Positions 11,720 to 29,404 of a DNA stretch of 56,155 bases are shown here, in pieces. The stretch covers positions 1-56,155 of the forward strand of contig JAUVLC010000002.1 in assembly GCA_030595925.1 (NCBI GenBank), given 5' to 3'. The position numbers were made by a program, and so were the translations under genes. The notes beneath the pieces are model-generated. The model worked only from the letters and a program-made list of their open reading frames with translations, ran no database searches and was not told the origin of the DNA. The DNA is from Clostridia bacterium (GTDB lineage Bacteria > CBDUZB01 > JAGLHV01). How positions within the stretch are numbered: the first letter of the stretch is position 1; each line of letters starts with the position of its first letter.

Positions 11720-11807
11720 TGGTGCCGGAGGAGGGAGTCGAACCCTCATGTCCACAATTAGACGGCAGATTTTGAGTCTGCTGTGTCTGCCATTTCACCA
11801 CTCCGGC
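11720..11807 (-). tRNA. tRNA-Leu (anticodon CAA), type II with a long variable arm, CCA encoded
   Basis: The reverse complement folds as acceptor GCCGGAG/CTCCGGC, 3-bp D stem, anticodon stem GCAGA/TCTGC with loop CTCAAAA, long variable arm, and T arm GAGGG-TTCGACT-CCCTC, ending ACCA. Confidence 0.95.
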
Positions 11808-20099: not shown

Positions 20100-20270
20100 A
20101 AGCCTTTAATATATCCCTGCGGTGTTAGTGTTGTGTTGATCATTTTGGGCCTACAAGCCTAAATCAGGGAATTCTTCGGTTTTCTGTAATCTTGGTTACA
20201 GAAACGGAATACCCACCTGGTATCTGGTGCTTCAAAAGGACTGCACACACGGCATACGCGGGGGTTTTTT
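20100..20270 (+). ncRNA. ssrS: candidate 6S RNA
   Basis: GC-enriched island of about 170 nt with no ORF, immediately downstream of zapA. The ends pair (CCCUGCGGUG.. with ..CAUACGCGGGG). A perfect apical hairpin TTCTGTAA-TCTTGG-TTACAGAA is extended by GGGAAUUC/GGAAUACCC. The element ends in GGGGG-TTTTTT. A 5-formyl-THF cyclo-ligase gene follows two genes later, as in the classic zapA-ssrS-ygfA synteny. Confidence 0.6.
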
Positions 20271-20365
20271 ATTTAATGGTAAATAATTCTAATTTGGATA
20301 AAAAAATATAAATCAGGGGGTGTAATTTAAAATATCTTTGGATTAAAGGTGGATTGAGGAAAAAA

Positions 20366-24846: not shown

Positions 24847-25347
24847 ATGGAAGATTTTACTGAGAAAATGGAAAATGAACGGAATAAATGGCAGGTACTT
24901 ACAGAGAAAATACCCGGGTATGGGGGATATAAAGATAGGGAAAGAAGAAGGGATGCCGATAAATTAATTCGGGATTTTCTGGTAAAAGAGCTTAATCAAA
25001 GTAAAGAAAAAATTGCCCAAATTGCTTCAGAGAAGGTAGAAAAAAAACAGTTATCCGGAATTGACAGGATTGATCGATTGACTAAAAAAATGGAAAAAAT
25101 AGCAGATAAAATTCGCTTTGCTGATTATGGATATAGTGGTTTTTTTGATCAGATTAAAATTGATGCTAAAAAATTAGATGATATTTATGATTTTGATCAT
25201 TCGTTAATAGAAAAAGTTGAAGAATTGAAAAAAATGATTGAAACAGTAAAAAAAGAGGCAACAGAAGAAAAAATTTCTTTACTTTCGGAAAAAATTGAAA
25301 AGTTAGATGATATTTTTTCTGAAAGAGAAAAAGGAATAATTATTTAA
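24847..25347 (+). CDS. hypothetical charged, probably all-helical protein (first gene of the SPFH/zinc-ribbon module)
   Basis: AGGAGG SD. 166 aa, rich in K/E/D. I recognise no catalytic motif. Confidence 0.6.
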   Translation: MEDFTEKMENERNKWQVLTEKIPGYGGYKDRERRRDADKLIRDFLVKELNQSKEKIAQIASEKVEKKQLSGIDRIDRLTKKMEKIADKIRFADYGYSGFFDQIKIDAKKLDDIYDFDHSLIEKVEELKKMIETVKKEATEEKISLLSEKIEKLDDIFSEREKGIII

Positions 25348-25380
25348 AATAGCATAAAAAAAAAGAAGGAGGAAATTAAA

Positions 25381-26430
25381 ATGGGAATTTTAATTGAAGT
25401 TTTGGAATTTTTGGATGAAACGGGAAAAGAAATGGTGCATCGTATTCCGGAGGGTGGTTCCGGGGATATTAAAATGGGTGCACAGCTTATTGTCCGGGAA
25501 AATCAAAAAGCAGTGTTTTTTCGTGACGGAAAAGCCCTGGATACTTTTGGGTCAGGCAGGCATGTTTTAACAACCGAAAATATTCCCATTATTACCCGGG
25601 TTTTAAGTTTACCTTATGGTTTTAAGAGTCCTTTTCGGGCAGAAGTATATTTTGTTAATGAAAAAGTTTTTATTAATATGAAATGGGGGACAAAGGAACC
25701 GGTTGTTTTTCATGATTCGGAATTAAAAATGGTTAGGTTACGCGGTTTTGGAATGTTTTCCACTAGAATTACCGATGCTCAACTTTTTGTAAATAAGATT
25801 GTAGGAACCCAGGGTAGTTATAATTCAGAACTATTGGAGGATTTTTTTAGGGAAATAATTATAGGCAGATTAAATGACCTTTTAGGTGAAAATTTAAAAA
25901 CAATATTTGATCTTCCTCAATATTATGATGAATTAGCCATGGGAATGAAAACAAGGCTGAGGGATGATTTTGCTAAATACGGAGTGGAGTTGGTTGATTT
26001 TATTATTGGGTCTATTACTGTACCTAAAAAGGTCCAGGAGGTTATTGATGAAAGAAGTGGCCTGGAAGCAGTAGGGGGGTTGCAGGGATATATGCAATTT
26101 AAAGCAGCCCGGGCAATAGAAGAAGCAGCTAAAGGACGAACAGAAGGAGGAGGAAGAGCTGCCGGTTCAGGAATGGGTATGGGTTTAGGAGCAGGAATGG
26201 GAATGATGTTACCCGGTATGATTATGCAATCAATGCAGGGAAAGCAGACTGTCCCCGGTGGAGCAACAATAAAATGTCCCAAGTGTCAGGTGACTATGGC
26301 TGCCGGAGCAAAGTTTTGTTCTAATTGCGGAGAAAAATTAGTTCATGAAGAAACAAAAACCTGTCCGCAATGCAAAAATACTATTCCCTCAGAGGTTAAA
26401 TTTTGTCCTGAGTGTGGTAAGAAAGTATAA
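25381..26430 (+). CDS. SPFH/Band-7 family protein (PF13421 / COG4260 'virion core protein-like', YdjI-like) with a Gly/Met-rich linker and a C-terminal double zinc ribbon
   Basis: N-terminal region [45 protein letters not shown]..., low-complexity [13 protein letters not shown], then CPKC..CSNC and CPQC..CPEC. Confidence 0.75.
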
Positions 26431-26514
26431 TAAAATTTGGTTTTAATGTAGACATGAGATTTTTCTCCGGAAGAAACCGGGTTGTGATTTGCGGGGATAA
26501 AGAAGAGGAATTTT

Positions 26515-27273
26515 ATGCAGGTTAAATGTAATCAATGCGGAGCTGAACTAAAAATAAAACCCAATGAAATATTTTTTAGTTGTACTTATTGCGGTTCTTC
26601 TTTATATTTAGATGCCTCTCAAATAAGTTTTCATTATTATTTAGCTCCTAAAACAATCGATGGTGATTTAAAATTAATCCTTTCTGCTTTCCTGCAGCGA
26701 AAAAGCTTGAAACAAAAAATTAGAATAGAAAAAAAAGAAATTTTTTATTTCCCTTTTTGGTTATTAAAAGGGGGAGAAAAAGGAATAAAACTTAAACTTG
26801 CTGCTTCTACGGCAATTGATGAAATTGAAAAAGTTGTTATTCCCCCTGCAGGGAAATTAAATTTTTTTGATCCTGAAAATGAAGATATAAAAGGTAAAAA
26901 AATAGTAGCACCCGGTATTGCTTATGAAGCGGTTAAAAAAAATATGGAAGATGAAATTAAAAAAGGTGATTTTTCCCAAATTATGCTTTTGCATCTTCCG
27001 TTTTTTTTATGCCAGTATAGATATGCAGGAGAAAAAGGGGTATTTACGGTTTTAATTGATGCTGTCGGAGGGAAGATTTTTGCTAATTCTTTTCCCCATG
27101 TTTCTCTGGAAAAAATAGACTCTGAATTTTTTTGGGCAATAGGGATAACCTGTATTATTTTTTTTATGGAAGGATTAATGTTTAAAAATTTATTGGTTAA
27201 ACTATTTGTATATTTTATTTCTGCTTTTCCTTTATATTTATTATTACAGTATCTTCTCAGAAAGAAGTGGTAA
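26515..27273 (+). CDS. zinc-ribbon membrane protein, paralog 1 (CxxC-x13-CxxC N-terminus, two C-terminal TM helices)
   Basis: Motifs CNQCGAELKIKPNEIFFSCTYCGS and the shared FYFPFWLL motif, with two hydrophobic C-terminal helices. Confidence 0.65.
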   Translation: MQVKCNQCGAELKIKPNEIFFSCTYCGSSLYLDASQISFHYYLAPKTIDGDLKLILSAFLQRKSLKQKIRIEKKEIFYFPFWLLKGGEKGIKLKLAASTAIDEIEKVVIPPAGKLNFFDPENEDIKGKKIVAPGIAYEAVKKNMEDEIKKGDFSQIMLLHLPFFLCQYRYAGEKGVFTVLIDAVGGKIFANSFPHVSLEKIDSEFFWAIGITCIIFFMEGLMFKNLLVKLFVYFISAFPLYLLLQYLLRKKW

Positions 27274-27275
27274 CA

Positions 27276-28400
27276 ATGAAAGAAACGGTAGTAATTACTT
27301 TAAATTGTCCCCAGTGTGGTTCTTCTTTGAAAATAAAAGAAGGACAGCAGAATATAAGGTGCGGTGCCTGTTCCTCCTATTTATTGATTAAAGGTGGTGA
27401 AGGAGTAAATAAATTATATATTTCTTCGCTGGTAAATAAATCTAAAGCAGTGTTGAGAGTAAAAAAATGGTTTGACAGGGATGATACGGCTAATGATATT
27501 GGGTTAAGTAAGGTAAAAAGTGTTAAGTTAGTATATATTCCGCTTTGGAAATTGTCTTTTAAGGCAATCGGCTGGCGTTTTATGAAAAGAGAACATAAGC
27601 GTCGTAGTTATAGCGGTAACAGTTATTATGCGTTGGATAATTATGGATTTAATGAAGGACAGAAAAGTATCTCAAAGCGGGAAGCAAAACCTATTTTGCG
27701 TTTCGGAGAATGGATAGTTCCTGCTTGTGGAATAACTGATTTTGGAAGTGAATATGTTAAAATATCTCAAAATAGTTTAAAAAGGGGATTAAAAGTCTTA
27801 GAAGAGGATAAACTACAAGCGGAAGCAATGGTTTTTGATGTGACTATTCCTGCGGAATCTATTTTGGAGAAAAAAGAAAAATCACTGTTGGGCAATCTTC
27901 CTTTAAAGAGATCCACCTCAAATTTTTTCCAAATGGTTAAAAAAATTTCTACCAAAAAAATGTTGATTTATTATCCTTTATGGATAATAAGGTATGATTA
28001 TAAAGGACTGAGATATTTAGTTTCGGTGGATGGAGTGGAGGAAAAAATTGTTTACGCCCATTTTCCGGGAAATCCTCACTATCGGGTAGTTAATTTTTTG
28101 ATTGTAATTGCAGCAATTAATTTTGTATTAACCAGTATTATTCAGCGTCCCGGGGATTTAGTGAATGCTTTAATAAAAATGGAAGAGGTTTTTCTTTTGG
28201 CTTTGTTTTTATTGGGTTCTCTTTTATTTGGGTATTTTAAAGCGGGGATTAAGTCTTTTCGTTTTTCGGATGAAGTAATAGTGAAAAATGGTTTACGTGT
28301 AGATAAGGGATATGCTCCTACCCGGGATGTTTGGGACAATGTCGGATTTTTGGCTATGGAGCGATTGAAAGGGAGTTTGTCTGGTAGAAGATTTAGGTGA
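27276..28400 (+). CDS. zinc-ribbon membrane protein, paralog 2 (duplicated internal domain, two C-terminal TM helices)
   Basis: Motif CPQCGSSLKIKEGQQNIRCGACSS; the shared motif occurs twice (VYIPLWKL, IYYPLWII). ATG 27276 lies 2 nt after the upstream stop; an alternative GTG at 27267 overlaps it. Confidence 0.65.
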   Translation: MKETVVITLNCPQCGSSLKIKEGQQNIRCGACSSYLLIKGGEGVNKLYISSLVNKSKAVLRVKKWFDRDDTANDIGLSKVKSVKLVYIPLWKLSFKAIGWRFMKREHKRRSYSGNSYYALDNYGFNEGQKSISKREAKPILRFGEWIVPACGITDFGSEYVKISQNSLKRGLKVLEEDKLQAEAMVFDVTIPAESILEKKEKSLLGNLPLKRSTSNFFQMVKKISTKKMLIYYPLWIIRYDYKGLRYLVSVDGVEEKIVYAHFPGNPHYRVVNFLIVIAAINFVLTSIIQRPGDLVNALIKMEEVFLLALFLLGSLLFGYFKAGIKSFRFSDEVIVKNGLRVDKGYAPTRDVWDNVGFLAMERLKGSLSGRRFR

Positions 28401-28413
28401 AAAAGGAATCTTT

Positions 28414-29055
28414 ATGAAAAAACAAAATATTTGTATTATTCCTTTAAAATGTTCTCAGTGTGGTATGGAATTGCAAGCTGTGGAAGGGGAACAGGTTTAT
28501 TATTGTAATAATTGTAAGACTGCTTTATATTTAAAAGATGGTGAGCTTGAAGTTCTTCCTGTAGAGTTTGCACTTCCGTCGATTGAAAGAGAGAAAGAAG
28601 AATATGTTTTTTTTCCTTTTTGGTCTTTTTTGGTAGATATTGAATTTTTTGCCGGATTGAAACAGGAAAGATTTACTCAATTTTCTTTAGCCCGAAATAA
28701 ACAAGGGGTATGGCAATATCATGTAGCAGGATTATGGGGAACGGATGATTTTGGTTATATTAACAGGACATCCAATTTGTTTATGCGTTTTTGCCCTCAA
28801 TACAAGTTGAGTTCTAACTTCTATCCGATGCAAAAATGTTTTTTATCCAGAGAGGAGGCGGAAGATTTAGTCGAATTAATATTTTTATCTTTGGAAAACG
28901 AAACAATAGTTTCATTAAGTAAAATTAATTACAAGATTAAGATTCTTTCTTCTAAAATGGTAGGTATCCCTTTTTATCTTGACCGGGAAAAAGATGTATA
29001 CAGAGATGCATTAGGGGGAAAAACAATTGTACCGGTTTCTTTATTTAATAAGTAG
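28414..29055 (+). CDS. zinc-ribbon protein, paralog 3 (soluble, no TM)
   Basis: Motifs CSQCGMELQAVEGEQVYYCNNCKT and VFFPFWSF; 13 nt after the previous gene. Confidence 0.65.
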   Translation: MKKQNICIIPLKCSQCGMELQAVEGEQVYYCNNCKTALYLKDGELEVLPVEFALPSIEREKEEYVFFPFWSFLVDIEFFAGLKQERFTQFSLARNKQGVWQYHVAGLWGTDDFGYINRTSNLFMRFCPQYKLSSNFYPMQKCFLSREEAEDLVELIFLSLENETIVSLSKINYKIKILSSKMVGIPFYLDREKDVYRDALGGKTIVPVSLFNK

Positions 29056-29294: not shown

Positions 29295-29316
29295 GCCGGC
29301 TGAAGCTGTCGGCTAC
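29295..29316 (-). repeat. REP-like hairpin in inverse orientation (GTAGCCGAC-AGCTTCA-GCCGGC on the minus strand)
   Basis: Read directly from the sequence; it is the partner of 29230-29252 inside the 131-bp element. Confidence 0.45.
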
Positions 29317-29404
29317 CGTTTTTCAACAATCTCTAAATGTCGCCACTATAATTGTTTTGAAAATTAGAGTTGTGACACAGTCTGGAAAATGGTAATATAT
29401 AGAA

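Follow-up and report, generated by a model that had tools for sequence, protein, structure and literature searches.

A conserved five-gene cluster encoding a soluble YdjI/SamI-type SPFH protein, a helical partner and three paralogous zinc-ribbon proteins

YdjI of Bacillus subtilis is an SPFH protein of the PF13421 type. Soluble SPFH proteins of this type are common in bacteria, and to our knowledge only YdjI (also called SamI) has been studied, its role there being tied to PspA. The membrane proteins YdjG and YdjH (SamG and SamH) recruit the soluble YdjI/SamI in B. subtilis (PMC8581546). SamI controls PspA foci and restrains SamGH signalling (PMC8581546; bioRxiv 10.64898/2026.02.06.704340), the assignment of signalling to SamGH and of restraint to SamI being a proposal (bioRxiv 10.64898/2026.02.06.704340). 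YdjG is described as two ribbons followed by a YpeB-like alpha/beta domain and a transmembrane (TM) segment (PMC11237479). Here we analyse a cluster of five genes (W1 to W5) at positions 24847-29055 of a 56,155-nucleotide stretch of a Clostridia bacterium genome (contig JAUVLC010000002.1; the whole stretch is called the window). We observed that this cluster is a genuine multi-phylum operon, with a core of W1 and the SPFH gene W2 to which a triad of zinc-ribbon genes (W3, W4 and W5) is usually, not always, attached. The module is built from three protein families that are without current annotation.

The five open reading frames are all on the forward strand with gaps of 33, 84, 2 and 13 nt, in agreement with the first-pass annotation of this DNA. 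The SPFH protein W2 matched PF13421 (Band_7_1) with an E value of 7e-62 (209.2 bits against a cutoff of 24) over profile positions 9-209 of 211, and it also matched PF01145 (E 2e-14). The SPFH domain is followed by a Gly/Met-rich linker, read from the sequence, and by two C-terminal zinc ribbons that were recognized by DZR and Zn_Ribbon_1 (E 1e-10), which is the architecture that had been proposed for W2 at first pass. Hydropathy analysis of W2 revealed no hydrophobic or TM segment. As judged from its sequence, W2 has the tested features of the YdjI-type soluble SPFH family (PF13421/COG4260), and its architecture agrees with the published description of YdjI/SamI (PMC8581546; bioRxiv 10.64898/2026.02.06.704340). 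Orthologs of W2 with 48-58% identity were found in 80 genomes from many phyla.

When the cluster is set beside the pspA-ydjGHI (samGHI) operon, both are seen to encode, together with membrane proteins, a soluble SPFH protein that has a linker of low complexity and a zinc finger at its C-terminus. The architectures of W3 and W4 are also like that of YdjG (ribbon, alpha/beta region, TM segment), the likeness being drawn from the published description of YdjG. However, several differences were observed. The Bacillus operon has a gene for PspA/IM30, whereas none of W1 to W5 matched PF04012, and neither did any of 33 W1-family members, in keeping with the earlier remark that no PspA-like gene is recognisable. 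It also has YdjH/SamH with its TPM domain, whereas TPM_phosphatase was absent from W1 to W5 and from their recurrent neighbours. The window carries three paralogous ribbon proteins in place of one. YdjG has two ribbons, whereas each of these three has a single ribbon followed by two repeat units. It adds the conserved helical protein W1, and its SPFH gene is second in the operon rather than last. Because there is neither a PspA nor a TPM protein, we do not file the cluster in the pspA-ydjGHI operon; by analogy, it most likely works like SamGHI, and the two systems, of which SamGHI serves in membrane stress, are probably related. The resemblance to ydjG-ydjH-ydjI noted at first pass is therefore reasonable as a mode of action, while membership of that operon was not borne out. 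A tblastn search of the plasmid and phage collections with the SPFH protein returned no Bacillus locus, and the match in Monoglobus had a TIM44-like neighbour and no YdjG.

The cluster can also be compared with other operons that pair an SPFH protein with a partner. HflK/C-FtsH, stomatin/QmcA-NfeD and flotillin-YqiJ/YuaF have in common with the window an SPFH scaffold beside a small dedicated partner at the inner membrane. The SPFH protein of the window differs from these in having neither a TM segment nor a long coiled-coil wall, and there is no NfeD or protease among its partners; for the families of W1 and the triad there is no Pfam model.

W3, W4 and W5 are true paralogs that share one fold, as had been suggested from the sequence of the window. 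BLASTP related them at E values of 8e-7 to 7e-9 over the N-terminal part. Family alignments, built from 55-89 orthologs per protein, were then compared using hhalign. W3 and W4 aligned at 99.9% (E 9e-31) over 211 columns that extend from the ribbon through the two repeat units to the first TM helix; W4 and W5 aligned at 96.9% (E 1e-10, 188 columns), and W3 and W5 at 97% (E 1e-10). All three proteins open with a CxxC-x14-CxxC ribbon, the spacing of x12/13 given at first pass being in error. The aromatic-Pro-aromatic-Trp strands described there are present: FYFPFW in W3, YIPLW and YYPLW in W4, and FFPFW in W5. We observed two helix-plus-hairpin repeat units in each protein, the second one carrying LHLPFF in W3 and GIPFY in W5. 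The zinc-ribbon gene is thus triplicated as had been stated, and the internal duplication that had been ascribed to a single paralog is found in all three. Units A and B are themselves related (hhalign 85%, E 7e-6), and the cross-unit alternative alignment was also seen in the comparison of the paralogs.

In W3 the ribbon occupies residues 3-31, unit A residues 39-95 (with FYFPFW) and unit B residues 115-190 (LHLPFF...IDAVGGKIFAN), after which comes a TM hairpin. An AlphaFold2 model of W3 from a 77-sequence alignment (predicted local distance difference test score, pLDDT, 91.9; predicted template modelling score, pTM, 0.79) gave the same order, with a four-stranded ribbon, two repeats in which a helix precedes a long beta hairpin, and the TM hairpin. 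In W4 a long insert separates unit A (YIPLW), which follows the ribbon, from unit B (YYPLW); the TM hairpin comes next, and the protein ends in a tail of ~50 residues. Hydropathy placed TM hairpins in W3 and W4 (segments at 272-328 in W4) and none in W5, which is a domain of the W3/W4 type minus the membrane anchor. This agrees with the first-pass assignment of two membrane-anchored paralogs and one soluble one, as does the W3 model. Since the N-terminal ribbon domain has no signal peptide and is followed by the TM hairpin, essentially all of W3 and W4 should face the cytoplasm.

No Pfam or NCBIfam model covers the domain of W3, W4 and W5 beyond generic ribbons, and the W3 fold, its ribbon excepted, had no significant match in the PDB by structure or by sequence. 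The ribbons are similar to the Rpo12, LysW and TFIIB types. The size of the W3 family was taken from an exhaustive search with a hidden Markov model (HMM), which gave 1030 cluster representatives (50% identity) at E<=1e-3 and 185 at E<=1e-10; a word-index homolog search had given 4 matches only. We also evaluated PepSY/YpeB-like domains as a possible identity of the repeat units, the likeness being a helix packed on a beta-hairpin sheet and a terminal 'VDAxxGxV' motif. PepSY (PF03413) was absent from the Pfam matches of 77 members of the W3/4/5 family at E<=0.01, and the unit-B profile found nothing among PDB sequences. The top Foldseek match, obtained with the whole multi-domain W3 model and not with isolated units, was 4exr, which was non-significant (E 0.12). 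Since neither the sequence nor the fold searches support the PepSY identity, we treat the resemblance as a lead only.

The first gene, for which no family could be named at first pass, does have relatives. W1 matched the NCBIfam model NF047596 (LIMLP_15305 family) with an E value of 8e-17 and 61.7 bits, the curated equivalog cutoff of 210 not being reached, and the alignment is nearly full-length (residues 5-160 of 166 against model positions 8-169 of 175). By sequence, W1 is a homolog of this family and not an equivalog member. The Leptospira protein LIMLP_15305 is itself uncharacterised, and a literature look-up gave only a mention in a table (PMC7567364). A total of 135 homologs of W1 were found, and two motifs, IPGYxGYxxRExRRDxDK and RFAxYGYSGFFD, are invariant in the family. 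In the AlphaFold2 model of W1 (five helices, pLDDT 79), both of these Gly/aromatic motifs form the least confident loops, and on this model they are probably a binding surface or interface. W1 had no significant match in the PDB by fold or sequence and belongs to no Pfam family.

We also considered W1 as a divergent PspA/ESCRT-III protein. There were no PspA_IM30 or Snf7 matches among the 33 W1-family members, a profile search of PDB sequences returned generic coiled coils only, and Foldseek with the AlphaFold2 model gave nothing below E 0.18 and no match to PspA or Vipp1. This candidate was therefore rejected. Weak matches to HAAS (PF22564) were seen in 6 of the 33 members (E 0.007-0.03, ~15 bits against a cutoff of 27) at residues 10-60 and are taken as a lead only; W1 of the window itself had no HAAS match.

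The conservation of the cluster was followed from two sides. In the first survey, 80 genome loci were collected using the SPFH alignment, and the 78 with a complete SPFH open reading frame were scanned with our own family HMMs. These loci come from Acidobacteriota, Actinomycetota, Desulfobacterota-like 'deltaproteobacteria', Methylomirabilota/NC10, Krumholzibacteriota, Eremiobacterota/Vulcanimicrobiota, Aminicenantes, Nitrospirota and others. A W1 homolog adjoins the SPFH gene in 58 of the 78 loci, typically overlapping it or lying less than 15 nt away. A protein of the W3/4/5 family adjoins it in 37, of which 19 have two or three separate paralogs and 18 have a single protein of 460-550 residues. 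The complete set of five genes was found at 10 of the 78 loci; five-gene loci include Actinomycetota, a Baltobacteraceae metagenome-assembled genome (L072, Eremiobacterota), a deltaproteobacterial one (L087) and the window's own lineage (L012, 95% identical). Gene order in Actinomycetota is W3-W4-W5-W1-SPFH (L063, L068-L070, L076, L078, L090).

In the second survey, 80 metagenome loci were found with an alignment of the W3 sub-clade. Where the contig left room, W4 came next in 41 of 42 and W5 next in 40 of 42. Among the 25 loci with at least 2.5 kb of upstream sequence, an SPFH gene was upstream in 19 (76%) and W1 in 14. Synteny with SPFH genes in other genomes, on which the first-pass annotation had made its reading depend, was thus found from both sides. 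Orthologs of all five genes also occur in the same order in distant genomes. One distant locus, in a context of polysaccharide genes, has an SPFH protein 55% identical to W2 followed by proteins of 233, 349 and 280 residues, and each of these three ribbon proteins has a separate ortholog among W3, W4 and W5. W1 and the SPFH gene are a near-obligate pair, W3-W4-W5 is an almost invariant triad, and the linkage of pair to triad recurs in several phyla and with more than one order of the genes.

Two variants of the arrangement were observed. In the soluble protein of 460-550 residues, which is encoded directly 3' of the SPFH gene and has no TM segment, a half resembling W4 is fused to one resembling W5, and both halves contain a CxxC-x14-CxxC ribbon of their own together with two units of the FPFW type. 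In Acidobacteriota, a protein with a zinc ribbon, a TM segment and a Toastrack domain (DUF4097) is encoded between the W1 homolog and the SPFH gene. In the surveyed loci this protein never occurs together with the W3/4/5 family, which suggests that the ribbon-bearing membrane partners are interchangeable. Toastrack (DUF4097) proteins are part of the Psp interaction network of B. subtilis (PMC9239133). The cluster touches the accessory domains of the Psp network (Toastrack/DUF4097 and HAAS; Ravi et al., PMC11237479) at two points, the Toastrack protein that replaces the triad in Acidobacteriota and the weakly HAAS-like N-terminus of the W1 family. It differs from them in that the window has no Toastrack, the HAAS similarity is sub-threshold, and no PspA, PspC or LiaF is linked. 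A possible further partner variant was seen in an IMG/VR locus on a gut Firmicute-like contig (L093), where the gene for a distant SPFH protein that has three ribbons precedes those for a protein of 150 residues with the same CxxC-x14-CxxC ribbon and a multi-TM protein of 203 residues.

A census of the 134 immediate flanking genes of the 78 SPFH loci gave no recurrent PspA, TPM protein, sigma factor, PadR, other transcription factor or protease. The recurrent neighbours were DUF2207 (6) and baeRF family 10 (5), both in Actinomycetota, PAP2 (4), DAGK/YegS (4) and Toastrack. The PAP2 and DAGK/YegS lipid-kinase neighbours give a hint of a lipid connection. In the Actinomycetota module, the release-factor-like baeRF family 10 protein, which has a C-terminal ribbon, is encoded upstream and the DUF2207 membrane protein downstream. 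Loci of the Krumholzibacteriota type have a PAP2 lipid phosphatase gene 3' of the triad (L016, L017, L034, L046, L050). Outside the lineage of the window the module has unrelated contexts (including polysaccharide genes, dnaG-rpoD and tRNA synthetases).

Together, these observations have led us to conclude that the five genes very probably form one functional module. What the module does is put forward with less assurance: we lean towards a conserved operon whose products form a complex on the cytoplasmic side of the membrane, with the soluble YdjI/SamI-type SPFH protein at its core. W3, W4 and W5 would form a hetero-oligomer at the inner membrane face that docks or regulates SPFH oligomers, and W1, which takes the genomic position that PspA has in Bacillus, would bind the SPFH protein as a regulator or effector. 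Rather than catalysis, the likely role would be to survey or organise the inner membrane, in envelope stress or in the maintenance of lipid domains. This mechanism is borrowed from SamG/SamH and SamI of B. subtilis. Several findings weigh against it. No PspA/ESCRT-III protein, protease or other recognisable effector is linked to the cluster, as seen in the five proteins, the 33 W1-family members and the 134 neighbours. Membrane anchoring is not universal in the ribbon family, since the 18 W4-W5 fusions have no TM segment, and these soluble fusions, together with stand-alone triads and the missing effector, weaken a simple anchor model. About a quarter of the triad loci have no SPFH gene next to the triad (L010, L011 and 6 of 25 metagenome loci), and W1-SPFH is without the triad in about half (~35 of 78).

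The ribbons could also be read in another way, as part of a membrane-tethered signalling device in which those of W3, W4 and W5 bind nucleic acid or a transcription factor in an anti-sigma-like manner and the SPFH protein acts as the brake. Ribbons of the Rpo12, LysW and TFIIB types would suit this reading, as would the annotation of the YdjG ribbon as TF_Zn_Ribbon (PMC9239133), the proposal that SamGH signals and SamI restrains it (bioRxiv 10.64898/2026.02.06.704340) and the weak matches of the W1 family to the HAAS signalling domain. However, the HAAS matches lie at ~15 bits where the cutoff is 27, isolated ribbons are usually sites of protein-protein contact, and the 134 flanking genes include no recurrent sigma factor, PadR or other transcription factor. 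We consider a signalling device of this kind unlikely.

It might also be argued that the cluster consists of two independent neighbouring modules, a W1-SPFH pair and a self-sufficient triad that has nothing to do with SPFH. The loci with the triad alone and those with W1-SPFH alone are what such independence would give, and the widest gap inside the cluster (84 nt, and 186 nt in the locus L005) falls between the SPFH gene and W3. The linkage of the two nevertheless recurs across phyla in two orders, with the triad after the SPFH gene or, in Actinomycetota, before W1; the W4-W5 fusion lies directly after the SPFH gene in 18 loci; and the SPFH gene is upstream in 76% of the W3 loci with enough upstream sequence. 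Repeated and rearranged linkage is a classical sign of functional coupling, and we regard two unrelated modules as quite improbable.

The first-pass annotation had also raised phage sensing. Some conflict systems do contain SPFH and zinc-ribbon proteins, and the cluster is multi-gene and uncharacterised. When W1 to W5 were searched against PADLOC-DB 2.0, no model matched at E<0.003, the best match (E 0.0035) being to the ribbon only. With the SPFH protein, 50,697 phage records yielded a single weak match and IMG/VR yielded 2 loci. As there is no PADLOC match and the SPFH protein is nearly absent from the phage and IMG/VR collections, a role in defence or phage sensing is unsupported. The cluster has no nuclease, protease or NTPase effector, base composition is uniform, and housekeeping genes lie on either side (rny-ymdB upstream and xseA-xseB-ispA-dxs downstream) in an order that is identical in a relative at 68% identity, all of which make an anti-phage system very improbable. 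Finally, an accessory of RNase Y/YmdB that organises membrane-bound RNA decay, suggested by the 62-nt gap after rny-ymdB, the lack of a terminator-like site between ymdB and W1 and the rny-ymdB-W1 order kept in L005 and L012, is extremely improbable because the flanks in other phyla are unrelated and include no rny or ymdB.

The coordinates of the cluster and of the other features are collected in Table 1. W4 has an alternative GTG start that would overlap W3 by 7 nt. A hairpin with a T run, 240 nt 3' of W5 and found by a consensus scan only, is probably the end of the transcription unit. The same scan showed no comparable site in the ymdB-W1 gap, so transcription may read through from rny-ymdB into W1. 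A regulatory RNA or attenuator in the 84-nt gap between W2 and W3 was considered and rejected, as the folding z-score was 0.17 and the hairpin is not kept in L005; an Rfam scan of the cluster gave zero matches. Elsewhere in the window, a full-length match to the 6S RNA model RF00013 (56.5 bits) lies just 5' of an MgsA-like AAA gene at 20354, and a tRNA gene of 85 nt probably belongs to class II, in which the variable arm is long. Up to ~36 kb the GC skew has strongly positive values (0.15-0.37), from ~40 kb it is negative, and gene orientation switches from + to - at ~40.9 kb; this point of convergence could mark a replication terminus or reflect mere strand bias. The RNase Y of the window has its nearest named taxa in Elusimicrobiota/Endomicrobiales and Omnitrophota (~60% identity).

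Table 1. Coordinates of the five genes, their domains and other features, in the window unless a locus is named (L numbers are surveyed loci; aa, amino acids; ZnR, zinc ribbon)
Feature	Position	Strand	Description
W1	24847-25347	+	166 aa, all-helical, LIMLP_15305-like family, usual upstream partner of the window's SPFH clade
W2	25381-26430	+	349 aa, soluble YdjI/SamI-type SPFH protein
W2 SPFH domain	25462-26064	+	aa 28-228
W2 Gly/Met-rich linker	26134-26253	+	~aa 252-291
W2 zinc ribbons (two)	26272-26424	+	aa 298-348
W3	26515-27273	+	252 aa, ribbon, units A and B, C-terminal TM hairpin
W3 TM hairpin	27121-27267	+	aa 203-251
W4	27276-28400 (ATG) or 27267-28400 (GTG)	+	374 or 377 aa, ribbon, two units, TM hairpin
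W5	28414-29055	+	213 aa, soluble; ribbon, units A and B, no TM segment
Terminator-like hairpin with T run	29295-29323	+	240 nt 3' of W5; consensus scan only; probable end of transcription unit
6S RNA	20111-20268	+	Rfam RF00013
tRNA gene	11723-11807	-	85 nt; probably class II
W4-W5 fusion loci	L013-L014, L019, L021, L025, L028, L030-L031, L039, L041, L043-L044, L048, L054, L061, L074		soluble fusion 3' of the SPFH gene
ZnR-TM-Toastrack gene	L007 7677-8810; L009 7617-8804; ~12 Acidobacteriota loci among L022-L083		between W1 homolog and SPFH gene
Distant SPFH locus	L093 7932-10208		possible further partner variant

In the SPFH clade nearest to the window, the usual partner is the uncharacterised helical protein W1 and not PspA, and members of a zinc-ribbon family that lacks annotation are present as well in about half of the loci. 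This family has ~1000 cluster representatives (50% identity) and a confidently predicted fold that has no match among solved structures. As a tentative and rather doubtful extension, W1-SPFH and the triad may be a widespread PspA-independent machine for membrane maintenance or stress, in which W1 would replace ESCRT-III/PspA and the ribbon-hairpin domain would be a new SPFH-docking fold, with SamGHI-PspA a derived offshoot of an older and commoner arrangement. The analysis defines three protein families and an operon model for how soluble SPFH scaffolds may be brought to bacterial membranes and act there, and it gives a comparative context in which the Bacillus system can be read.

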